A DNA stretch of 64,000 nucleotides from Candidatus Omnitrophota bacterium (GTDB taxonomy: Bacteria; Omnitrophota; Gorgyraeia; Gygaellales; Profunditerraquicolaceae): the NCBI GenBank assembly GCA_041308845.1, contig JBFZAT010000011.1, forward strand, positions 9,540 through 73,539, given 5' to 3'. Below are positions 6,258 to 50,656 of this stretch, piece by piece. The position numbers and the translations under genes are program-made. Within the stretch, counting starts at the first letter, position 1; each line of letters begins with the position of its first letter. A model generated the notes under the pieces. The model ran no database searches, was not told the origin of the DNA, and saw only the letters and a list, made by a program, of their open reading frames with translations.

Positions 6258-7186
6258 AACCGATTAAACCTAACTTAAGTATAAAATTAGGCGCTTTAGA
6301 TTTAAAGAATCCGGTGATGGTGGCTTCTGGGACATTTGGTTATGCGCAAGAATTCAAGGATTTTATGGATTTAAAAAAACTGGGTGCGTTGGTTACCAAA
6401 ACCATTACCGTTAAGCCTCGCCAAGGTAATATTGCCCCACGGACCTGCGAGACTCCAGCTGGGATGTTAAATTCTATCGGCCTGGAAAATCCCGGCGTTG
6501 AAAGGTTCCTCCAGGAGAAGCTCCCTTTTCTGCGTAAACTTAATATCCCGGTTATTGTCAGTATTGCTGCTGAGGAGGCAGCGGAAGAATTTGTTGATTT
6601 AGCACAGCAATTAGATCAATTGCCAGAAGTATCTGCAATTGAATTAAATATTTCTTGTCCTAATCTGGACAAAAGCAGGCTTATTTCTCAGGATGCCGAT
6701 AACACCTTGGAGGTGATCAGTGCCGTGCGCAAAGTTACTACTAAGTGTTTAATTGCTAAATTATCGCCTAATGTTACTTCTATCGTAGATATCGCTTTAG
6801 CGGCGCAAAATGCCGGAGCGGATGCTTTGGCGTTAATTAATACGCTTGGCGGCATGAGCATTGATGTACACAAGCGCATTCCTAAGCTAGGTTCTTGGGT
6901 CGGCGGCTTAAGCGGCCCGGCCATCCGGCCGGTAGCTATAAAGATGGTCTGGGAGGTTTACAACAAGATTAAGATTCCTATTATTGGGATGGGTGGTATA
7001 ATAGATTTAGACAGCGCTTTAGAATTTTTCATTGCCGGCTCAACCGCAATTAGCGTAGGTACGGCGAATTTCATTAATCCTAAAACCAGCCTGGAAATTA
7101 TTTCCGGATTAGAGCAGTATATGACCGAGCACAATATTCAGAATTTAAATAATATTACTGGAAGATTAAAGGCGTGCAAAGATTAA
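6251..7186 (+). CDS. pyrD: Dihydroorotate dehydrogenase (class 1B) catalytic subunit
   Basis: LKNPVMVASGTFGY and NSIGLENPG motifs, TIM-barrel DHODH, 311 aa. Confidence 0.85.
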   Translation: MVKPIKPNLSIKLGALDLKNPVMVASGTFGYAQEFKDFMDLKKLGALVTKTITVKPRQGNIAPRTCETPAGMLNSIGLENPGVERFLQEKLPFLRKLNIPVIVSIAAEEAAEEFVDLAQQLDQLPEVSAIELNISCPNLDKSRLISQDADNTLEVISAVRKVTTKCLIAKLSPNVTSIVDIALAAQNAGADALALINTLGGMSIDVHKRIPKLGSWVGGLSGPAIRPVAIKMVWEVYNKIKIPIIGMGGIIDLDSALEFFIAGSTAISVGTANFINPKTSLEIISGLEQYMTEHNIQNLNNITGRLKACKD

Positions 7187-26233: not shown

Positions 26234-26310
26234 TGGGCGATTAGCTCAGTTGGTTAGAGCGTCTGATTTACATTCAGAAGGTCAGGGGTTCAACTCCTCT
26301 ATCGCCCACC
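26234..26310 (+). tRNA. tRNA-Val (anticodon TAC), CCA encoded
   Basis: GGGCGAT...ATCGCCC acceptor, D-arm AGCTCAGTTGGTTAGAGC, anticodon stem TCTGA/TCAGA with loop TTTACAT, T-loop GGTTCAACTCC, terminal ACCA. Confidence 0.8.
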
Positions 26311-26386
26311 ATTAAATACTTAATAAATAGTAGACTTTTTTGAGATAAGAAAGTATAATAAGTTCCAAAAATTTTCAATAGGTTTT

Positions 26387-26465
26387 GGGGTCGTAGCTTA
26401 GCCTGGCTTAAAGCGCCTCCCTGTCACGGAGGAGATCGCGAGTCCGAATCTCGTCGGCCCCGCCA
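26387..26465 (+). tRNA. tRNA-Asp (anticodon GTC), CCA encoded
   Basis: Acceptor GGGGTCG/CGGCCCC (one G-U pair), anticodon stem CCTCC/GGAGG with loop CTGTCAC, T-arm GCGAG-TCCGAAT-CTCGT, terminal GCCA. Confidence 0.7.
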
Positions 26466-37561: not shown

Positions 37562-39076
37562 ATGCCTAAAAAGAGCTGTATTTTGTTAATTTTGGCCCTA
37601 AGTTTTACCTCTTTGGCACAGAGTTATGAGTTGGTCAACACTGACCAACTAACAGTACAGCTGGATACCTATCTGCGCACAGATTTAGTTACTTTTAAAA
37701 ATGTTGTGGATCTAGATCGGCGTAATCATGATGATCAGGTAACTTATTACGGGCTGGATTATAGTTTTGCTTTCAGCGCCGATTTTAAAAATTCAGGAAA
37801 TAAGATTTACCTTAAAGTTGAACGCAATGGCCCTTATGATTATAGCGCTCCGCTTTTCGTCCATAATACATTGGTTACTTCCGGTGGAAGCATTGAGGGT
37901 TACCGTAACCAAGAATTGCTGCCGCAAGTGGAAGAATTTTGGCTGGATAATAAGTTCTGGGGTGATTTTGGGCTTAAGACCGGTTTGTATATTTATGCAG
38001 TAGGCAATGGTTTCAGTTTAAACGGCGGATATGAGAATTACGGAGTGACTTTATACCGGCAAGCGGAAAACAGCTTTGGGCGTTTGTATTATTGCCGGCC
38101 GGATTTAGTGTATAAAAATCGTTTAGGCCCGCATGTGCAGCAGGAAGAAGATCAGGGGGAAGAGTACGAAACGAATGCGGCTAATTTTTTTGCCGCAGAT
38201 ATTAAAATTTCCGCGGGTCCGCAAACCTTTTGGCCTTATGTCGGAGTATTAGCTGATTATACTTCTGCCGGCAAAAGGGATAATTTTTATGCTGCTTTGG
38301 TAAAAAGGGATTTATTGGGTACATTTGGCGTTGCCTGGGAATATGCAGCAGAAAGTTTTACCTTTAAATTAGAAGCGGCGCGTAATTTTGGGTATGCGCA
38401 AAGCCAAAATAGTGATTATAAGGATATTCAACACACCGGCTATCTGGTTTACTCCGGGATTAACTATGTTTTAGGTAAATTTATCCCGGAATTACATTTT
38501 TTATTCTGTTCGGGGAATAATGCTACTTTGGATCTGGCCGGCAAATCCGATGAGCCGTATGTTTCGGGGAAGAACCGGGCTTTTAGTTATTCTTCAGTGA
38601 CCAACCGGAATTTAAGCGATACGGTCAGCAGCAGCAATGTTGATATGTTGCCAATTGTGGCGATGGGCGGCGGGTATGGTTTAAATTACGGCGTACCCCG
38701 GCCGGGGACATTTTCATCAGCCGATTTCGATAATTTGATTTTACCGGTTATCGGTTTTACTTATAATTTTACAGATAAACTTTGCCTAAGCTTATACGGA
38801 TATTATCTAAGGGCGGCGAGCCGGCCGGTAGGGAGGTTAAACGGGCAAGGCAGGTATCTTGCCCGGGAATTAGGGACAGAGGCGGATTTGTTTATCGACT
38901 ACCAAATTACAAAAAATATTAACTTAGGTTTTTTAGGTGGATGTTTTTTCCCAGGAAAATATTATAAAGAAGAGCGCGATGATTATGACGGCAGCATATT
39001 TAGCCCCTATGTGCGAGGAGATGGCCGCGCGGACAATGCTTATCAGCTTGAATTCTATGTAGAGTTGAAGTTTTAA
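37562..39076 (+). CDS. Secreted outer-membrane beta-barrel candidate (porin-like)
   Basis: Signal peptide MPKKSCILLILALSFTSLAQS, many alternating aromatic/Gly strands, C-terminal ...YVELKF ending in Phe, which is typical of OM beta-barrels. Confidence 0.5.
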   Translation: MPKKSCILLILALSFTSLAQSYELVNTDQLTVQLDTYLRTDLVTFKNVVDLDRRNHDDQVTYYGLDYSFAFSADFKNSGNKIYLKVERNGPYDYSAPLFVHNTLVTSGGSIEGYRNQELLPQVEEFWLDNKFWGDFGLKTGLYIYAVGNGFSLNGGYENYGVTLYRQAENSFGRLYYCRPDLVYKNRLGPHVQQEEDQGEEYETNAANFFAADIKISAGPQTFWPYVGVLADYTSAGKRDNFYAALVKRDLLGTFGVAWEYAAESFTFKLEAARNFGYAQSQNSDYKDIQHTGYLVYSGINYVLGKFIPELHFLFCSGNNATLDLAGKSDEPYVSGKNRAFSYSSVTNRNLSDTVSSSNVDMLPIVAMGGGYGLNYGVPRPGTFSSADFDNLILPVIGFTYNFTDKLCLSLYGYYLRAASRPVGRLNGQGRYLARELGTEADLFIDYQITKNINLGFLGGCFFPGKYYKEERDDYDGSIFSPYVRGDGRADNAYQLEFYVELKF

Positions 39077-39177
39077 GTCGTGTCCTATCTTGAGCTTTGG
39101 GCGCAGCGTTATTTGCCTTGCCTGCGCTTATCGCGGATAAAAAACTAATTCAGGCGCAGCTAGCAGGAGGAAGATTA

Positions 39178-39498
39178 ATGGCCAGCATTGATGATTTCAG
39201 GAAATTAGAGTTGAGAGTAGCGGAAATTAAGGAGGTTAATGATCATCCGAATGCCGATAGATTAATTATTTTAACTCTGGATTTAGGAGATCGGCAGAAA
39301 CAGGTGGTGGCGGGAATTAAAAATTTCTATTCTCCGCAAGAGCTGATTGGCAAACAGGTGGTTTTGGTGGATAATTTAGATCCAGTGTTTTTGCGCGGGG
39401 TAGAAAGCCAGGGGATGATTTTAGCCGGTAGCGATGAAAATACCCTGGCTTTGCTTAGCCCGGAAAAACCCCTGAAATTAGGGAGCATTGTAAAGTGA
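39178..39498 (+). CDS. tRNA-binding domain protein (CsaA/Trbp111/EMAP-II-like OB fold)
   Basis: LRVAEIKEVNDHPNADRLIILTLDLGD...QVVAGIKNFY...GMILA. Start placed at the ATG after AGGAGG rather than the ORF-track start. Confidence 0.65.
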   Translation: MASIDDFRKLELRVAEIKEVNDHPNADRLIILTLDLGDRQKQVVAGIKNFYSPQELIGKQVVLVDNLDPVFLRGVESQGMILAGSDENTLALLSPEKPLKLGSIVK

Positions 39499-40004
39499 TA
39501 AAACAGTTTGTCCCGCAGGAGTTCTGTCTGAAATGCCGAGGATGCTGCCGGTTTAAAGAAGAAAATTCCGTTTGGAGCCCTTGTCTTTTAGATGAGGAGA
39601 TTCAAAAGTTACTTGAAAAAAAAGGAATTCCGGTTGCCTTGATTTCCATTGATCGCCGGATACAGCCGGTCGTAAACCCTCAAGGGGAAAATTTTATTTG
39701 CCCGTTTTTAAAAATACAAGATAATTACTGTCAGATTTATGATCTGCGGCCGTTTGAATGCCAACTGTACCCTTTCTTGATTAATTTGCGTAATGGCAAG
39801 GTTTTGTTAACGGTAGATTTAAATTGCCCTTATGTCTATGAGCAAATTAATAGCCAGTTGGCCAAAGATTATATTGCTTATTTGACAAGTTATCTTAATT
39901 CAGCACCGTTACGGCGGATGCTCAAAGATAATCCTCAGATTATTCAGGCTTATGAAGAAGTGAGAGAAGTCGCGGAGTTAGGCTTGCCTGATGAAACTAA
40001 ATAA
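39495..40004 (+). CDS. YkgJ-family CxxCxxCC (putative Fe-S/Zn) domain protein
   Basis: CLKCRGCCRF near the N-terminus plus additional Cys (CPF, CQ, CPY); 169 aa; overlaps both neighbours. Confidence 0.5.
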   Translation: MIKQFVPQEFCLKCRGCCRFKEENSVWSPCLLDEEIQKLLEKKGIPVALISIDRRIQPVVNPQGENFICPFLKIQDNYCQIYDLRPFECQLYPFLINLRNGKVLLTVDLNCPYVYEQINSQLAKDYIAYLTSYLNSAPLRRMLKDNPQIIQAYEEVREVAELGLPDETK

Positions 40005-40896
40005 ACTATCTTTAGACAATCAAGGGTTATTTAAGCGCTACTTGGGTCGCTTTCCTTGTGAATTAGCGGCATATTCTTTTGCCAATATCTATCTTTGGCA
40101 ACCGCTTTATAATGTTCATTGGGCAGTTAGCGAGGATAGTTTATGCGTATTTTTCCGCGATCGATTAGGTTGTTTTATGTATCTGCCCCCCTTAACGACA
40201 GCTCCGACTGCGCAGCTTATCCAACAAGTTTTTGCCGTGATGGACAAAGTTAATAAAAATCAGAATATTTCGCGCATCGAAAATATCCAAGCTCATCAAT
40301 TAGACTATTTTCGTTCTCTAGGGTATTTATGTTATGAGAAATATCCGGATTATTTGTGCCTGCGCAGCGATTTAGCGAATTTGAGGGGCAACCAATTTAA
40401 ATCTCAACGTGCCGCTTATAATTATTTTATCAAACACTACGACTATAAGCTCGCCCGTTTAGCATTGACCGATCAGCAGGAATGTTTAAGTTTGTTTGCT
40501 GCCTGGGCGCAAGAACGAAAAGCCAGACGTAATGATGATGTCTATTGTGGTATGCTTGAAGATAATCGTAGAATAATCCGGGAGGTTTTCGCTGATTACC
40601 AAAAATTGCGCTTGATAGGATTGGTGGTTAGATTGAACAATGAAATTAAGGCTTTTAGTTTCGGCTATCAACTTAATGCTGATACCTTTTGCATACTTTA
40701 TGAAATCACGGATTTATCGGCGAAAGGGTTAGCCCAGTTTATTTTCAGACGGTTTAGCCAGGAGTTAAAAAAATACAAATTTATCAATATAATGGATGAT
40801 TCTGGCCTGGAAAATTTACGCAGGAGTAAATTAGCTTATCACCCTCAGCGTTTAATTCCAGCTTATATCGCGATTAGGGATGAACGAAAATATTGA
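39991..40896 (+). CDS. DUF2156-family protein (homologous to the MprF/LysPGS C-terminal aminoacyl-tRNA transferase domain)
   Basis: AAYSFANIYLW, DYLCLRSDLANLRGNQFKSQRAAYNYF, AFSFGYQLNADTFCILYEITD..KGL fit the DUF2156 consensus; ~300 aa. Confidence 0.55.
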   Translation: MKLNKLSLDNQGLFKRYLGRFPCELAAYSFANIYLWQPLYNVHWAVSEDSLCVFFRDRLGCFMYLPPLTTAPTAQLIQQVFAVMDKVNKNQNISRIENIQAHQLDYFRSLGYLCYEKYPDYLCLRSDLANLRGNQFKSQRAAYNYFIKHYDYKLARLALTDQQECLSLFAAWAQERKARRNDDVYCGMLEDNRRIIREVFADYQKLRLIGLVVRLNNEIKAFSFGYQLNADTFCILYEITDLSAKGLAQFIFRRFSQELKKYKFINIMDDSGLENLRRSKLAYHPQRLIPAYIAIRDERKY

Positions 40897-41701
40897 AGAA
40901 TTAGAATTGACTATATTTGATACCGAGACCACTGGCCTTCATCCTTCTGCCGGAGACCGCATCGTAGAATTAGCCGGGCTTAGAGTGAAAGGCCGGGAAA
41001 GAATCGCTCAGTTTGATGTTTTAGTTAATCCGCAACGTTTAATCTCTCCCGGGGCTTTTGCGGTTAATAAAATTACTCCGGAAATGCTGGCTGATGCCCC
41101 GAGTATAGAAAAAATTATGCCTGCGTTTTTAGAATTTATCCAAGGCAGCTGCCTGTGTTCTTATAATGCAGAGTTTGATTTGGGTTTTTTAAACCAGGAG
41201 CTTAAGCTGCTCGGCCGGCCGCCGGTTACCGGAGTTTTGGTTTTAGATGTTTTAAAAATGGCCAAAAGACTACTGCCTGGCTTGGCGCGTTATGCGCTTT
41301 GGTTCGTCGCTGAAAAACTGGGAGTAGCATTGATTCAAACTCACCGGGCTTTTTCGGATGTGGAGATGACTTGGGAAGTTTTTATAAAATTAAAGGCGAT
41401 CTGTCAAAAGCAGGGGATTCAAGGCATAACTAATTTTTCCAACCTTTTTGCTTATAATGCGGAGCTGTTAGAAAGCTCGAATATGGAAAAAACTGTTTTA
41501 ATCCAGAAATATATTGAAACGCAAAGGATTCTACGGTTTCGTTATATTTCCAGTTATAATGCTGAAGTTTCTTTACGCGAGATTATTCCTCAACAGATCC
41601 GCCAGGATAAACAATACCGGTATTTAATCGGCTATTGTTGTGCGAAAAAGGAACAACGCATTTTCCGTCTGGATAATATTTTAAATTTAGAAACCGATTA
41701 A
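40880..41701 (+). CDS. DnaQ/DEDDh-family 3'-5' exonuclease with a C-terminal extension
   Basis: IFDTETTGL (Exo I), SYNAEFDLGFL (Exo II), HRAFSDVEMT (Exo III), plus ~100 extra C-terminal residues. Confidence 0.7.
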   Translation: MNENIEELELTIFDTETTGLHPSAGDRIVELAGLRVKGRERIAQFDVLVNPQRLISPGAFAVNKITPEMLADAPSIEKIMPAFLEFIQGSCLCSYNAEFDLGFLNQELKLLGRPPVTGVLVLDVLKMAKRLLPGLARYALWFVAEKLGVALIQTHRAFSDVEMTWEVFIKLKAICQKQGIQGITNFSNLFAYNAELLESSNMEKTVLIQKYIETQRILRFRYISSYNAEVSLREIIPQQIRQDKQYRYLIGYCCAKKEQRIFRLDNILNLETD

Positions 41702-41774
41702 TAATATTTAAGATTGCCTTAGTAAAGATTTAGTATAGAATAGATTCCCAGGCAGTTTTAATTAAGATAACCCG

Positions 41775-43712
41775 ATGAAAATCAAAGAACAAAAGATGGT
41801 TTCGGCAGAGCAAAGGAAATATTTACGTTTAGATACGGTTTTCCCAGTGCAATTCCGCTTGGAAGAACAGACGAAAGAAGTTTTGCTGAGTGGTTGGCTA
41901 CAGGGATTTACCAACAATATCAGCCGGGGTGGGATATGCCTGACGATTAATAACCTGGATCCGCAGTTGGGCAAGCTGCTCAGGCAGAAAGATGTGAAAT
42001 TATCATTAGAGATCGATATTCCGACCAGTCGGAAATCTATCCCTGCCCGAGGAGGGATAGTTTGGGTGAGGGATGTTCCGGGCGAGAAACCCCAGTATGT
42101 CGTGGGGGTTAACTATGACTATATTTTGGTTCAACACAATAATCAGCTCATGCGCTATGCTTGGTTTAGAAAACTATTTGCCCCGTTAATTTTAGCTGTA
42201 GTAATAGTGCTCGCCTCAGGGTTGAGCATCAATAGTTATCTGAATTTTAAATTGACCCAAGGTAATAAGCTATTAATTGAAAAACTAAGCGGGGTCTTGC
42301 AAGATTCAGAGTTGGCCAGACAAAGAATTGAAAAGGCAGTCGCCCAAGGGGAAAATTTTCAGTCTCAGCTCAACCAGCTGCAGGCGCGTATCAAATTCCT
42401 GGAAGCTGAGAAGCTAGAGATTCAGGCCGGAGATGCAATCCAGATTGGAGAACTCAATGATTTAATCGCTGGTTTGACCAAAGAAAAAAAGAATTTAGAA
42501 GAAACGCTGGCAGAGATTAAACGTGATGAAAGCCAGGCGGTTCAAGAATTAGTGCAGTTGGATGACCGGAAACTGGTTTTGGAAAAAGCTAATTTTGACA
42601 GGATGTACCAATGGTTAAAGCTTCATCAAAATCAGCGTTCCGGATTAGTGGCTAGTTTTGAAGGGGATAAGGAAATTACCAGCTGGTCTTTTACTTATGA
42701 CCTGGCTTTATTAGTGCAGGCTTATGCCAAATTTGGAGATTTTGACCGAGCTAAAAAAATTCTGGATTTTTTTAACCATGGAGCCAAAAGAGAAAACGGC
42801 TGGTTTTTGAATGCCTATTATGTAGATGATGGTGCTCCGGCAGAGTTTATTATGCATAGCGGGCCCAACCTGTGGGTGGGATTAGCAATTCTACAGTATA
42901 TGCAAGCTACGCAGGATAAAAGTTATTTAGAGTTAGCCGAAAGTATTGCCCAGACAATTATGGATTTACAGCGGCAAGATGCTTTTGGCGGTATCCGCGG
43001 CGGTCCCCACATGGAATGGTATGCTACCGAACATAATTTGGACGCCTACGCATTTTTTAATATGCTGGCTGAGGTGACCCAAAAACCGGTTTATGCCCAA
43101 GCCGCCCAGAAAACTATAGACTGGATGGTTAGTAATACCTATGCTCCTCCGGATTTACCAGTTAAACGCGGTAAGGGGGATGCTACAATTGCCACCGATA
43201 CTTATGCCTGGAGTATTGCGGCGGTGGGTCCGGAAAAATTGTTTGCTTTAGGCATGGATCCTGATCAGATCCTGGAATTCGTAGAAGAAAATTGCAGCGT
43301 GGAAGTTGTTTTTAAACGTTCCGATCAAGAGAGCGTAAGAATTAAAGGGTTTGATTTTGCCCCACAGCGACATACTGCCCGGGGCGGGGTAGTTTCTTCT
43401 GAATGGACAGCCCAGATGATTGTGGCTTATAAAATTATGGATGAGTTTTATACCGAAAGAGGAGATTTGACTAAAGCCGCCGGTTACGCTAAGAAAGCCC
43501 AGATCTATTTAAATGAATTAGGCAAGATGATTATTTCTAGCTCCTCGGCTTCCGGGCAAGGACAGGGCTGCCTGCCTTACGCTACTTTAGACCAAGTAGA
43601 TACCGGCCATGGCTGGATGACCCCTAAGGGCAGCCACACAGGTTCGGCCTCTGGTACCGCCTATGCCCTTTTTGCTTATTACGGTTTTAATCCTTTAAAG
43701 TTAAAAAAATGA
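41775..43712 (+). CDS. PilZ-domain protein with TM helix, coiled coil and a C-terminal alpha/alpha-toroid-like domain
   Basis: QRKYLRLD...NNISRGGICL (RxxxR...DxSxGG PilZ signature), one TM (LFAPLILAVVIVLASGL), ~100-aa heptad region, then repeated helical-hairpin blocks (YDLALLVQAY, NLWVGLAILQY, NLDAYAFFNML, DTYAWSIAAV). Confidence 0.6.
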   Translation: MKIKEQKMVSAEQRKYLRLDTVFPVQFRLEEQTKEVLLSGWLQGFTNNISRGGICLTINNLDPQLGKLLRQKDVKLSLEIDIPTSRKSIPARGGIVWVRDVPGEKPQYVVGVNYDYILVQHNNQLMRYAWFRKLFAPLILAVVIVLASGLSINSYLNFKLTQGNKLLIEKLSGVLQDSELARQRIEKAVAQGENFQSQLNQLQARIKFLEAEKLEIQAGDAIQIGELNDLIAGLTKEKKNLEETLAEIKRDESQAVQELVQLDDRKLVLEKANFDRMYQWLKLHQNQRSGLVASFEGDKEITSWSFTYDLALLVQAYAKFGDFDRAKKILDFFNHGAKRENGWFLNAYYVDDGAPAEFIMHSGPNLWVGLAILQYMQATQDKSYLELAESIAQTIMDLQRQDAFGGIRGGPHMEWYATEHNLDAYAFFNMLAEVTQKPVYAQAAQKTIDWMVSNTYAPPDLPVKRGKGDATIATDTYAWSIAAVGPEKLFALGMDPDQILEFVEENCSVEVVFKRSDQESVRIKGFDFAPQRHTARGGVVSSEWTAQMIVAYKIMDEFYTERGDLTKAAGYAKKAQIYLNELGKMIISSSSASGQGQGCLPYATLDQVDTGHGWMTPKGSHTGSASGTAYALFAYYGFNPLKLKK

Positions 43713-47477: not shown

Positions 47478-48467
47478 ATGAAAATAGTCGGGTTGACCTA
47501 TGATTTAAAAAGCGATTACAAGTTTAAAGAAGGAGATCCTCTAGATGCCAACGCAGAATTCGATTCTTTGTCTACAGTGGATGTGATCGCGGAGGCTATT
47601 TCGGCCAACGGCTTTAAGGTTAAAAAAATCGGTAATGCCGCTAATCTGTTGGAAAAAATCGATCATTTAGGGGTAGATATTGTATTTAATATATCTGAAG
47701 GTTTAAGCGGGAGAAACCGGGAATCTCAGGTTCCGATTTTGTTGGAAATGGCGAGTATTCCTTTTGTCGGCGCAGATGCATTGACTTTAGGATTAACCTT
47801 GGATAAAGTCATGGCTAAAAAAATTTTTATTGCCGAAAAAATCCCTACGCCTAAATTTTTCGAAGTTGGATCTGTAGAAAGCTTGATTGATCAGGATCAC
47901 TGTCAGTTTCCGTTGATTGTTAAACCGCGCTTTGAAGGTTCCTCTAAGGGGTTAACGGAAAATTCACGCGTGGAGAATACCGATGAGCTTAAGAGGCAGG
48001 TTGAATTTATCGTTAAAACCTATAAGCAGCCGGCTCTGGTCGAAGAATTTATTTCTGGCCAGGAGTTTACTGTAGCGATTGTGGGCAATGAAAATCCCGA
48101 GGTGATGCCGGTAGTGCAGATTAAGATCGACGGGAAATTGAAATTAAACGATAAATTCTACACCTTTGCGCGGATCACTTCTGATCGTTTGGAATATATC
48201 TGCCCGGCTAAAATTTCCAGCGAGCTCAAGAAAAGACTAGATGAAATAGCTTTAAAGGTTTACCGAGCGGTAGAGTGTCGGGATTTCGGCCGAGTGGACT
48301 TCCGGGTGGATAATAACGGGAATCCTTATGTTTTAGAGATCAATCCATTGCCATCTTTATCGACCGAAGATGTTTTTATGCTGGTGGCTAAAAATATCGG
48401 CATTACCTATGAGCAGATGGTAGGCAAGATCTTAACCAGCGCGATGCTTAGAAACGGATTAAATTAA
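47478..48467 (+). CDS. D-Ala-D-Ala-ligase-family ATP-grasp enzyme, paralog 1
   Basis: Ddl-like N-domain (IVGLTYDLKSD...VFNISEG), ATP-grasp core (FPLIVKPRFEGSSKG...LVEEFI.GQEFTV..VG...EINPLPSL). Confidence 0.7.
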   Translation: MKIVGLTYDLKSDYKFKEGDPLDANAEFDSLSTVDVIAEAISANGFKVKKIGNAANLLEKIDHLGVDIVFNISEGLSGRNRESQVPILLEMASIPFVGADALTLGLTLDKVMAKKIFIAEKIPTPKFFEVGSVESLIDQDHCQFPLIVKPRFEGSSKGLTENSRVENTDELKRQVEFIVKTYKQPALVEEFISGQEFTVAIVGNENPEVMPVVQIKIDGKLKLNDKFYTFARITSDRLEYICPAKISSELKKRLDEIALKVYRAVECRDFGRVDFRVDNNGNPYVLEINPLPSLSTEDVFMLVAKNIGITYEQMVGKILTSAMLRNGLN

Positions 48468-49472
48468 ATGCGTGTAGCCTTGACTTATAATTTGAAAAAG
48501 AAGGATCCTCTGAAACCGGCGGATTATTTTTCTGAATGTGATTCTGAAGAAACGATTAATTCTGTAGTCTCCGCGCTTAAAACTAAAGGGCATTCGGTTG
48601 AAGCGATTGACGTGGAATATCCGGCTTTGTTTTCCTATTTCAAGAATAATCGCGTGGATATGGTATTTAATATTGCTGAAGGTAAACACGGGCGTTTCCG
48701 CGAAAGCGAAGTTCCGGCAGTTCTAGATTATTTAAATATTCCCTACACCGGCTCCAGTACATTTTCTTTAGCCTTGGCTTTAAACAAAGCCTTGACTAAA
48801 AAAATCCTAAAAGCAGAGAGTATCCCCACCCCCAATTTTCAGCTTTTTGTCAAAGGAGATGAAGCCTTAGATGCGGACCTGAAGTTTCCTTTGATTGTTA
48901 AGCCTAACTGTGAAGGTTCAGCTAAGGGCATTAATAAAACAAATGTCGTGTATAATTCCAGTGATCTCCGGGTCAAGGTCAAGGAGTGTTTGTATGTTTA
49001 TCGCCAAGAGGCTTTGGTAGAAGAGTTTATTGAGGGTAAAGAATTGACTGTGGGCATTTTAGAAAACGGTAAAACCCGAGTGCTGCCGATTTTAGAGATT
49101 GATTTTTCTAGTTGCCAGAAAAGCGGTGAATATTTTTATTCTTGGAAAATGAAAGAGTTTCAGGGGAATCGCGAGTTAGGATTGGTGCCGGAATTCCACT
49201 GTCCGGCCCGGCTGGATAAAGATATCGAACAGAAAGTTAAAGACACTGCGCTACGTACGCATCGGGCAGTCGGCTGTCTAGATATTTCGCGCACGGATAT
49301 CCGTTTGGATAAATTTAATGTGCCCTATGTGCTTGAAATTAATCCTTTACCGGGGCTAGATCCCAAAGAATCGAATTTTCCTATTATGGCCTATGCTGCC
49401 GGGATGACTTATGAAGATCTTATTGAGGCAATACTGCTAAGCGCCTCGGAAAGGAAAAAGGGCTTAAATTGA
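48468..49472 (+). CDS. D-Ala-D-Ala-ligase-family ATP-grasp enzyme, paralog 2
   Basis: VALTYNLKKKD...VFNIAEG...FPLIVKPNCEGSAKG...LVEEFIEGKELTVG...EINPLPGL. Confidence 0.7.
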   Translation: MRVALTYNLKKKDPLKPADYFSECDSEETINSVVSALKTKGHSVEAIDVEYPALFSYFKNNRVDMVFNIAEGKHGRFRESEVPAVLDYLNIPYTGSSTFSLALALNKALTKKILKAESIPTPNFQLFVKGDEALDADLKFPLIVKPNCEGSAKGINKTNVVYNSSDLRVKVKECLYVYRQEALVEEFIEGKELTVGILENGKTRVLPILEIDFSSCQKSGEYFYSWKMKEFQGNRELGLVPEFHCPARLDKDIEQKVKDTALRTHRAVGCLDISRTDIRLDKFNVPYVLEINPLPGLDPKESNFPIMAYAAGMTYEDLIEAILLSASERKKGLN

Positions 49473-50656
49473 ATAATCCCGCAAGTGTAGAAAATCAAAA
49501 AACTCAGATCGAAACTCCTGTTCTTTACCGGCCCGCCAAACGCGCGCGCGATTATCAGCAGCTTTCTCTTTATAAGGATGTTAACCCTTTAGATTGGGAG
49601 GATTGGCATTGGCAGCTTAAACATAGAATCCGCACCAAGGAAGAGTTAATGCAGATTATTAAACTTACTCCGGAAGAGGAGAAAGGCATTGATAAAGCTA
49701 AAGGTAGGCTGGCCATGGCAATTACTCCTTATTGGGCCAGTCAAATTGATGCTGAAGACCCGAATTGTCCGATCCGCCGGCAATCCGTTCCGGTGAATGA
49801 TGAGTTTTCAATTTCTCCGCATGAGATGGCTGATCCTTGCGCCGAAGACCGAGATTCTCCCGCTCCGCATTTAGTGCATCGTTATCCGGACCGGGTCCTG
49901 TTATTATCTACTGAGCATTGCGCAATGTACTGCCGGCATTGTACTCGTCGGCGCTTAGTTGGCGATCATGAAGAGAAAGATCTTAATCCGGAAACTAAAT
50001 TTGACGCAGCGATTGAATATATTAAAGCTAACCGCAAGATTCGGGATGTTTTAATTTCTGGTGGTGATCCGTTGACTTTGGAGGATGCGGCGCTGGAGTC
50101 TTTAATTTCTAAAATCCGCGCTATATCGCATGTAGAATTGCTGAGGATCGGTACGCGCATCCCCGTAACTTTGCCGCAACGCATCACCGAAAATTTAGTG
50201 CAAATGCTTAAAAAATATTCTCCGATCTGGATGAGTATCCATTTCAATCATCCTAAAGAAATTACCAAGCGTTGTCAGAACGCTTGTGATTTACTGGCAG
50301 AAAGCGGCATACCTTTAGGCAGCCAATCCGTGTTGCTCAAAGGGATTAATGACCGGCCTTTTATTATGAAACGTTTGGTACATGACCTGCTGCAGATTAG
50401 GGTCAGGCCATATTACATTTACCAGTGTGATCCGGTTAGGGGCACGCAACATTTTCGTACCCCGGTAGCTACTGGGATAAATATTATCGAAAAATTACGC
50501 GGTCATACCTCCGGTTATGCTGTCCCGACTTATGTGATTGACGGCCCCGGCGGCGGCGGCAAAATCCCTGTGGGGCCGAATTATATTCTTTCTCAGGCCA
50601 AGGGTAAATATGTTTTGCGTAATTATAAAGGCAAGATCTATACCTACCTGGAATAA
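49469..50656 (+). CDS. kamA: KamA-family radical SAM aminomutase (lysine 2,3-aminomutase-like)
   Basis: CAMYCRHCTRRR (CxxxCxxC KamA signature), GGDPL, C-terminal DGPGGGGKIP. Confidence 0.8.
   Translation: MNNPASVENQKTQIETPVLYRPAKRARDYQQLSLYKDVNPLDWEDWHWQLKHRIRTKEELMQIIKLTPEEEKGIDKAKGRLAMAITPYWASQIDAEDPNCPIRRQSVPVNDEFSISPHEMADPCAEDRDSPAPHLVHRYPDRVLLLSTEHCAMYCRHCTRRRLVGDHEEKDLNPETKFDAAIEYIKANRKIRDVLISGGDPLTLEDAALESLISKIRAISHVELLRIGTRIPVTLPQRITENLVQMLKKYSPIWMSIHFNHPKEITKRCQNACDLLAESGIPLGSQSVLLKGINDRPFIMKRLVHDLLQIRVRPYYIYQCDPVRGTQHFRTPVATGINIIEKLRGHTSGYAVPTYVIDGPGGGGKIPVGPNYILSQAKGKYVLRNYKGKIYTYLE

Follow-up and report, generated by a model that had tools for sequence, protein, structure and literature searches.

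Four overlapping genes in a genome of the bacterial phylum Omnitrophota raise the question of whether they encode a single biochemical system and, if so, whether that system is a transferase that draws on charged tRNA. The genes occupy positions 39178-41701 of a 64,000-nucleotide stretch of contig JBFZAT010000011.1 (Candidatus Omnitrophota bacterium, assembly GCA_041308845.1), which was analysed as a whole and is referred to below as the window. All four lie on the forward strand. The first, g1 (39178-39498, ATG start, 106 residues; PF01588, TIGR00399), encodes a free-standing tRNA-binding OB-fold protein, and g2 (39495-40004, GTG start, 169 residues; PF03692) a YkgJ-type CxxCxxCC protein. They are followed by g3 (39991-40896, 301 residues; PF09924), a free-standing DUF2156 tandem-GNAT protein of the BT_3689-like branch, and by g4 (40880-41701, 273 residues; PF00929, PF13280), a DEDDh exonuclease with a WYL domain. 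A preliminary description, made from the sequence alone, had interpreted the locus as a split aminoacyl-tRNA-dependent transferase. The analysis presented here reveals that the block is a conserved Omnitrophota operon around one enzyme consisting of two polypeptides, g2 and g3. This enzyme is a DUF2156 tandem GNAT with an obligatory cysteine-cluster partner that is predicted to bind metal; in this one phylum it is accompanied by tRNA-binding and exonuclease partners.

The CxxCxxCC and DUF2156 proteins are parts of one enzyme

An exhaustive HMMER search of a protein library clustered at 50% identity yielded 3575 relatives of g3, with 189 cluster representatives matching at E-values up to 1e-30. 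Among the 150 nearest representatives, 56 are at least 400 residues long (400-545 residues), and the N-terminal part of every one of these matches g2. Pfam finds a CxxCxxCC domain followed by an LPG_synthase_C domain in nine of ten fused proteins tested. Because the two are fused into a single protein in 56 of the 150 nearest representatives, g2 and g3 are to be regarded as one enzyme. Where the fused proteins are named, they belong to further Omnitrophota lineages or to Nitrospirota, with Nitrospira defluvii as one of the sources. In all members examined, comprising the 150 nearest representatives and the fetched loci from Omnitrophota and Nitrospirota, the cysteine-cluster domain is either fused to the DUF2156 domain or encoded next door. 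Separate, adjacent homologues of g2 and g3 (44% identity) are also present on a contig that does not resemble those of Omnitrophota, without g1. The AlphaFold2 (AF2) model of a natural fusion, with a predicted local distance difference test score (pLDDT) of 92.6 and a predicted template-modelling score (pTM) of 0.80, suggests a defined packing of the CxxCxxCC domain against the DUF2156 domain.

The preliminary description had located the split in its proposed transferase between the tRNA-binding protein and the DUF2156 protein. The fold and the conserved block on which this proposal was based are borne out, but the split that can be demonstrated is the one between the CxxCxxCC and DUF2156 domains. 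Fusion of a tRNA_bind or exonuclease domain to DUF2156 was considered and rejected, as the window's own g1 and g4 are the sole matches among 503 retrieved proteins. In agreement with the earlier remark that the gene set is not a described system, no description of it was found in the searchable literature. Nor was a paper describing the CxxCxxCC-DUF2156 architecture found there, and the Omnitrophota genomics paper does not mention it. The name that g3's named relatives carry in the public record is unsupported by anything found.

Fold of the DUF2156 subunit and its possible donors

Over positions 10-297 of 298, g3 matches the PF09924 profile (LPG_synthase_C/DUF2156) with an E-value of 4.6e-32 and a score of 111.7 bits against a cutoff of 27.5. 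Its AF2 model (pLDDT 96.5) is a tandem GNAT, in which two lobes lie on either side of a basic helix formed by residues 134-149. This helix carries the near-invariant K137 and the invariant R140; the other invariant residues of the protein are R95, G133, W172, G225, E238, G246 and K280. The SRIEN motif in the first GNAT lobe (residues 94-98) is common to all CxxCxxCC-associated DUF2156 proteins and is specific to that clade. A Foldseek search against the PDB identifies BT_3689 (PDB entry 2HQY) as the top match, with a template-modelling (TM) score of 0.88, a root-mean-square deviation of 2.3 Å and 25% sequence identity. The C-domains of MprF and of the alanyl- and lysyl-phosphatidylglycerol synthases (A-PGS and L-PGS) match with TM scores of ~0.65 at 13-14% identity, while FemX and the aminoacyl-tRNA-dependent peptide synthases Sba18/Sbb17 reach TM scores of ~0.6, all with a probability of 1.0. 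With the exception of 2HQY, the acetyl-CoA-using tandem GNATs rank below MprF-C, A-PGS, L-PGS, Sba18/Sbb17 and FemX. Judged by its model, g3 shares with MprF-C, FemX and Sbb17 the aminoacyl-tRNA-transferase fold, down to the basic helix between the domains. The relationship to the MprF C-domain that was first proposed for g3 is thus supported both by the profile match and by the structural comparison. The segment from the basic helix into the next helix (GN-x-KSKRA..., g3 residues ~133-191, positions 40387-40563) also gives weak profile matches to ribosomal protein eL19 (E-values 0.055-0.1), which are probably chance matches between basic helices.

Among the characterised DUF2156 enzymes, the MprF-type synthases, LysX, ErdS and ErgS are users of aminoacyl-tRNA with two GNAT lobes and a basic helix (PMC8913301, PMC6103681), and in the MprF family aminoacyl-tRNA serves as the donor (PMC6103681). 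The C-domains of MprF and the aminoacyl-phosphatidylglycerol synthases (PDB entries 4V34-36, 5VRV, 6LV0 and 7DUW) resemble g3 in their PF09924 assignment and their dual-GNAT fold with basic helix. In contrast to g3, however, MprF contains a flippase membrane domain, and g3 is also devoid of any lipid-related context. The only Pfam family detected in g3 is a single PF09924 hit, and none of the four proteins has a membrane-domain hit; g3 is ruled out as MprF proper, the bifunctional synthase/flippase, because it lacks the membrane domain. Other instructive relatives are ErgS, which is a soluble free-standing DUF2156 protein, and ErdS and LysX, in which DUF2156 is coupled to a tRNA-handling module (PMC8913301, PMC7334510). 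In ErdS and LysX a complete aminoacyl-tRNA synthetase, joined to the enzyme in cis, serves as this module and a metal-cluster domain is missing, whereas for the present locus a separate Trbp111-type binder is proposed.

The resemblance of g3 to BT_3689 allows a different view of the donor. According to this view g2/g3 is an N-acyltransferase that uses acetyl-CoA, or another acyl-CoA, to modify an amine of a protein or small molecule, with the cysteine cluster contributing to recognition or redox control and with tRNA not being the donor. If g1 matters in such a reaction, tRNA or aminoacyl-tRNA would be the acceptor; GNATs of the AtaT/TacT type are known to acetylate charged tRNA. BT_3689 and HPB8_1270 from Helicobacter pylori are, like g3, free-standing tandem GNATs of ~300 residues, and 2HQY is the best match of g3 not only in fold but also in sequence (E-values of 3e-29 with the single sequence and 4.5e-48 with the family profile). 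The basic helix with its GxxxKxxR sequence is common to BT_3689 and g3, as are the positions E238, G246, K280, Y283 and P285 of the C-terminal GNAT lobe. Acetyl-CoA is reported in the active site of 2HQY, and deletion of the H. pylori DUF2156 gene HPB8_1270 lowers the acetylation of four lysines in RNase J (PMC10700544), so that aminoacyl-tRNA is not the sole plausible donor. In addition, the Bacteroides orthologue adjoins pta-ackA and another GNAT gene, as well as LrgAB; no CxxCxxCC gene is among its neighbours. On the other hand, the sequence identity between g3 and BT_3689 is only 25-29%, and BT_3689 has neither the SRIEN motif nor a CxxCxxCC partner, which assigns it to a different subfamily. 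The effect in H. pylori is partial, with genetic evidence only, and no acetyl-metabolism gene is linked to the block. Furthermore, a tRNA binder that is translationally coupled to the enzyme in 72 of 73 genomes is left unexplained unless tRNA is the acceptor. Taken on these points, an acyl-CoA donor is possible, although less likely than not.

The cysteine-cluster subunit

The earlier assignment of g2 as a YkgJ-type CxxCxxCC protein is substantiated by a PF03692 score of 32 bits, above the gathering cutoff of 23. Not only the motif cysteines but also those distal to it are retained, since conservation among 140 homologues, stand-alone as well as fused, extends to C11, C14, C17, C18, C69, C79, C89 and C111. 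A search for a solved structure of a g2 homologue gave no result. A related cysteine motif is present in FliB, which binds a [4Fe-4S] cluster that is sensitive to oxygen and is needed for methyl transfer dependent on S-adenosylmethionine (SAM) (PMC8598068). FliB and g2 each contain an N-terminal cysteine-rich motif plus further conserved cysteines; FliB differs in its motif, CX4CX3CC as opposed to CxxCxxCC in g2, and in lacking a GNAT partner; it methylates flagellin lysines in a SAM-dependent manner. By analogy, g2 is predicted to be a metal-binding (Fe-S or Zn) subunit or domain of the transferase.

A single operon that encodes a tRNA binder and a GNAT along with a cysteine-cluster domain invites comparison with the Elp3-type tRNA modifiers, in which a radical-SAM domain with a CxxxCxxC cluster motif is combined with a GNAT. 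If the operon worked in the manner of Elp3, g2 would supply a [4Fe-4S] cluster and g3 the acetyl-CoA for a joint modification of a nucleoside in tRNA, or of some other RNA, and g1 would hold the tRNA in position. The oxygen-sensitive cluster of FliB and the acetyl-CoA reported for 2HQY would both be in line with such an arrangement. However, no similarity to Elp3 was detected. Neither g2 nor g3 gives a hit with the radical-SAM family PF04055, the g2 motif is CxxCxxCC and not CxxxCxxC, and the fused homologues are without a tRNA-binding partner. An Elp3-like function is therefore very unlikely.

Conservation of the four-gene block

The species representatives of GTDB were scanned with a 13-sequence alignment of the g3 family, a diverse 42-sequence alignment being too divergent to serve as a seed for a genome scan. 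The scan resulted in 302 matching loci, of which the best 80 were analysed. These 80 loci all belong to Omnitrophota and show g3 identities of 47-69%. In the evaluable cases, g2 is adjacent to g3 in 79/79 loci, g1 is present in 72/73 and the g4 exonuclease in 74/78. The start positions of g1, g2 and g4 relative to g3 are nearly constant (-813, -496 and +889, respectively), indicating that the overlaps are conserved as well. The preliminary description had made conservation of the neighbourhood a test of its proposal, and both the order and the spacing of the four genes are kept in the 80 loci. g1 is located directly 5' of g2 in these loci and is the most conserved of the four genes, with identities of 56-89%. 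The genes that flank the block in the window are retained in 35/61 loci on the upstream side and in 37/70 on the downstream side, and the intact block is found in at least five different flanking contexts. g4 is cleanly lost in four species, and its WYL part is present in 52/76 cases and missing in 24/76. In a distant Omnitrophota genome, where g2 and g3 are fused and the flanking genes are different, the fused gene is preceded by a tRNA_bind gene (4-nucleotide overlap) and followed by an RNase_T+WYL gene, which argues for a real linkage.

The overlaps by themselves carry less weight. Those described before, at 39498/39495 (g1/g2), 40004/39991 (g2/g3) and 40896/40880 (g3/g4), were reproduced on recomputation and amount to 4, 14 and 17 nucleotides, respectively. 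In the window, however, the forward strand carries 52 of the 54 genes, and 14 of 49 pairs of same-strand neighbours show overlap, so that overlaps are weak as sole evidence. It is the comparative conservation, and not the overlaps, which makes the block more than a product of chance.

A reading that leaves the donor open, and in this respect overlaps with acyl-CoA use, holds that only g2 and g3 belong together. In that case g1 would be a housekeeping protein (the beta subunit of methionyl-tRNA synthetase (MetRS), or Trbp111) and g4 a repair or proofreading exonuclease of the DnaQ family, and both would be passengers whose adjacency is kept by overlapping frames and compact co-directional packing. 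In accordance with this, homologues of g1 and g4 are found beside none of 83 fused loci outside the clade (three from Nitrospirota, Nitrospiria and Omnitrophota, one each, and 80 metagenomic ones with a GC content of 0.50-0.65), and neither stands beside the separate g2 and g3 of locus L085. Both genes are thus lineage-specific partners at best. The losses of g4 and of its WYL part, the nearness of g4 to the PolC and epsilon exonucleases, and the high conservation of g1 (up to 89% identity) together with its score above the cutoff for the MetRS C-terminal equivalog also point in this direction. Moreover, the window is a one-strand run with frequent overlaps, in which the block is surrounded by unrelated housekeeping genes (for CarAB, a V-type ATPase, PurH, MnmE and FolE). 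What speaks against passengers is that the block survives in the various flanking contexts with fixed spacing and persists in the distant genome with fused g2/g3. In addition, a tRNA binder forms a coherent pairing with a fold whose characterised members use aminoacyl-tRNA. The passenger reading is a serious one that nevertheless falls somewhat short of being probable.

In locus L090, from a distant Omnitrophota genome, a gene for a 136-residue, ArfB-like peptidyl-tRNA hydrolase with an RF-1 domain and a GGQ motif (6274-6684 of that locus) abuts the start of the tRNA-binding gene. Its interpretation as a link to translation rescue was rejected, as the remaining 89 loci checked show no recurrence of the gene.

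The tRNA-binding and exonuclease partners

g1 matches the PF01588 tRNA_bind family with an E-value of 6e-30 and the TIGR00399 metG_C_term equivalog with 127.5 bits against a cutoff of 116.65. The nearest structures are the MetRS C-domain (1mkh, E-value 2e-32) and Trbp111 (1pyb, 2e-25), whereas CsaA is matched at 1e-11 only. From the label "CsaA/Trbp111-like", previously given to g1, the Trbp111/MetRS-C half can be kept, while identification as CsaA is rejected on account of this much weaker match. By sequence, g1 is a Trbp111-type structure-specific tRNA binder. It is similar to Trbp111 and MetRS beta (PDB entries 1PYB, 1MKH and 8VTZ) in being a 106-residue OB-fold protein scoring above the metG_C_term cutoff, but differs in that its gene overlaps a transferase block by 4 nucleotides and that the window contains no MetRS gene.

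For g4, both a DEDDh exonuclease domain (~40913-41383; PF00929 RNase_T, E-value 1.9e-37) and the extra C-terminal domain noticed earlier are confirmed, and the latter is identified as a WYL domain (~41498-41692; PF13280, 1.1e-11). The Exo I, II and III motifs (FDTETTGL, YNxxFD and HRAxxD) and the DEDDh residues D14/E16, D99 and H154/D159 are at least 90% conserved in 75 homologues. The nearest structure is the exonuclease domain of PolC (2p1j, 7.5e-26). g4 passes the cutoff of the broad domain model TIGR00573 (107.8 versus 71.5 bits) but stays below those of the equivalogs for the epsilon subunit of DNA polymerase III (TIGR01406, 114.4 versus 222.7; NF004316, 115.7 versus 196). Orthology with this epsilon subunit was rejected, since all epsilon equivalog cutoffs are missed. 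Thus g4 is like the DnaQ/PolC-type DEDDh enzymes with a WYL domain in possessing all three Exo motifs and having the PolC exonuclease domain as its nearest structure, but is unlike DnaQ epsilon in its subthreshold scores and in carrying a WYL domain that is dispensable in 24 of 76 species. The earlier suggestion that the exonuclease could trim or proofread tRNA or another RNA is not supported, as nothing ties this PolC/epsilon-like enzyme to the trimming of tRNA.

Directly after the exonuclease domain, g4 contains a conserved F-x-x-L-F motif (residues 186-191, positions 41435-41452), which in the ~195-residue forms without WYL domain is situated at the very C-terminus (...FSNLFAFK). The motif resembles a sliding-clamp-binding motif and would point to DNA, not tRNA, as the substrate. 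In a PADLOC search the DEDDh and WYL domains of g4 each match generic Cas-associated domain models, and g1-g3 have no match. The block was rejected as an anti-phage defence system, since these generic g4 hits are the only ones and no other defence genes are nearby.

A possible mechanism

With the unity of g2 and g3, the conserved operon and the fold of g3 as the starting point, we infer a donor, an acceptor site and roles for g1 and the metal. In the proposed mechanism, g2/g3 would take the aminoacyl group from an aminoacyl-tRNA held at the C-terminal GNAT lobe and the basic helix, and pass it to an acceptor held by the N-terminal lobe, with its SRIEN motif, and the docked cysteine-cluster domain. 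Dimeric g1 would grip the elbow of the tRNA and so help the soluble enzyme to capture charged tRNA in Omnitrophota, a task that in LysX and ErdS falls to a fused tRNA synthetase. For the metal cluster, the most likely role would be a structural or redox-sensing one, in which it shapes or gates the site of the acceptor. The least certain member is g4, the DEDDh-WYL protein; it may be a passenger, or it may have as its substrate a nucleic acid that is connected with the reaction. As a whole, an aminoacyl-tRNA-dependent g2/g3 transferase aided by a Trbp111-type g1, with a metal domain at the acceptor site and an uncertain g4, is offered tentatively, as a plausible reading that is not quite a probable one.

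Several observations weigh against this proposal. The nearest solved relative of g3, with its TM score of 0.88, is the protein reported with acetyl-CoA, and the H. pylori protein, a member of the 2HQY group, behaves as a lysine acetyltransferase (PMC10700544). In the PDB, at an E-value threshold of 10 and with Bacteroides sequences added, the family profiles reach 2HQY only and no MprF chain. The gene context offers no acceptor, and g2/g3 is linked neither to a membrane domain nor to natural-product genes or genes of lipid metabolism. The absence of g1 and g4 at the 83 fused loci implies that neither is needed for the function of the enzyme; likewise, none of the DUF2156 homologues among the 503 retrieved relatives matched g1, i.e., no tRNA_bind fusion was found. 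As g1 qualifies as a MetRS beta subunit under NCBIfam, it may be a housekeeping tRNA cofactor. Finally, overlapping genes resist separation whatever their function, and the region is densely packed with unrelated same-strand genes.

A further reading assigns a larger part to the metal. The CxxCxxCC-DUF2156 proteins would then be tRNA-linked acyl-transferases of a new class, with an Fe-S cluster built into the catalytic unit and, in Omnitrophota, with Trbp111 as a dedicated subunit for tRNA delivery. Two forms can be envisaged, a redox-gated diverter of aminoacyl-tRNA onto a cellular acceptor or an Elp3-like Fe-S/GNAT modifier of tRNA, and even taken together they are unlikely. The existence of such a class stays open on account of the unity of g2 and g3, the eight invariant cysteines of g2, the coupling of a tRNA binder in 72/73 loci and the lack of a described match.

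Transcription unit and surroundings

Shine-Dalgarno-like sequences precede all four start codons and are clearest for g1, where AGGAGG is found 7 nucleotides upstream of the ATG; the longest open reading frame of g1 begins upstream, at a TTG codon at 39097. A promoter-like site was not found in the 101-nucleotide gap 5' of g1, so that co-transcription with the upstream gene, which encodes a 504-residue protein, is possible. Downstream of g4, on the forward strand, a hairpin followed by a U-run (41705-41765) has a minimum free energy of -14.5 kcal/mol (z = -2.7), and three of 200 shuffled sequences are as stable. The hairpin, which is not called by a simple terminator scan, may mark where the transcription unit ends. 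No unusual structure is seen in the 5' leader of g1 (z = +1.7), repeats within the block are limited to short pairs at chance level, and no Rfam family is detected in 38900-41900; the whole window contains three tRNAs only. GC skew is positive in all 2-kb bins of 1-64000, which together with the strand bias of 52/54 genes is consistent with the whole window being on the leading strand of one replichore.

The 504-residue protein (37562-39076) has no Pfam, NCBIfam or PADLOC match. It contains an N-terminal hydrophobic, signal-peptide-like segment, and its terminal sequence ...VELKF suggests an outer-membrane beta-barrel; it is encoded upstream of the block in 35/61 Omnitrophota loci. On the other side, 41775-43712 encodes a 645-residue protein, kept in this position in close relatives only, in which an N-terminal PilZ (cyclic di-GMP-binding) domain is paired in an unusual way with a C-terminal part that gives weak glycoside hydrolase (GH76/GH88) matches below the Pfam cutoffs. 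The 504-residue gene is separated from the gene for the V-ATPase c subunit by ~22 kb of low-GC DNA (15064-37438; GC 0.32-0.40), while the two genes adjoin each other in related genomes (L001 and L002). This stretch contains genes for three B12-binding radical-SAM enzymes, an asparagine synthase and two each of DUF2079 membrane proteins, PMT_2 glycosyltransferases, SPASM radical-SAM enzymes and GT2 enzymes, in addition to tRNA-Val and tRNA-Asp (26235-26465). It looks like an inserted island for the modification of cell-envelope glycans or lipids.

In the high-GC lineages, the neighbours of the fused enzyme include a KamA-like radical-SAM protein, glutaredoxin, a 490-residue protein without Pfam match, dCTP deaminase, a hybrid histidine kinase and CbbQ; as a conserved clue to function these neighbours were rejected, since none is clear. 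At 47478-50656 of the window, ~6-9 kb 3' of the block, two D-Ala-D-Ala-ligase-like ATP-grasp genes occur together with a lysine-2,3-aminomutase-like radical-SAM gene. A strong homologue of this radical-SAM gene (E-value ~1e-105) lies 2-3 kb upstream of the fused gene, in divergent orientation, in 30 of 80 high-GC metagenomic loci (L100-L168), where it is accompanied by glutaredoxin, the ~490-residue protein without Pfam match and dCTP deaminase. The occurrence of this gene near both the block and the fused loci was noticed after the fact and may be a coincidence.

Implications

DUF2156 enzymes divert charged tRNAs from translation onto lipids, sterols and antibiotics, and with each new subfamily that has been studied, a further acceptor has come to light (PMC7334510, PMC8913301). 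A large subfamily of these proteins, for which no description was found in the searchable literature, has now been defined. Should g2/g3 turn out to be a common acetyltransferase and its neighbours passengers, the gain would be confined to improved annotation. The natural fusion of genomes of the Nitrospira defluvii type provides a firm target for biochemistry, and the CxxCxxCC-DUF2156 family offers a test of whether the DUF2156 fold switches between aminoacyl-tRNA and acetyl-CoA as donors. In Omnitrophota, the separate Trbp111 subunit may represent a new route of tRNA recruitment.

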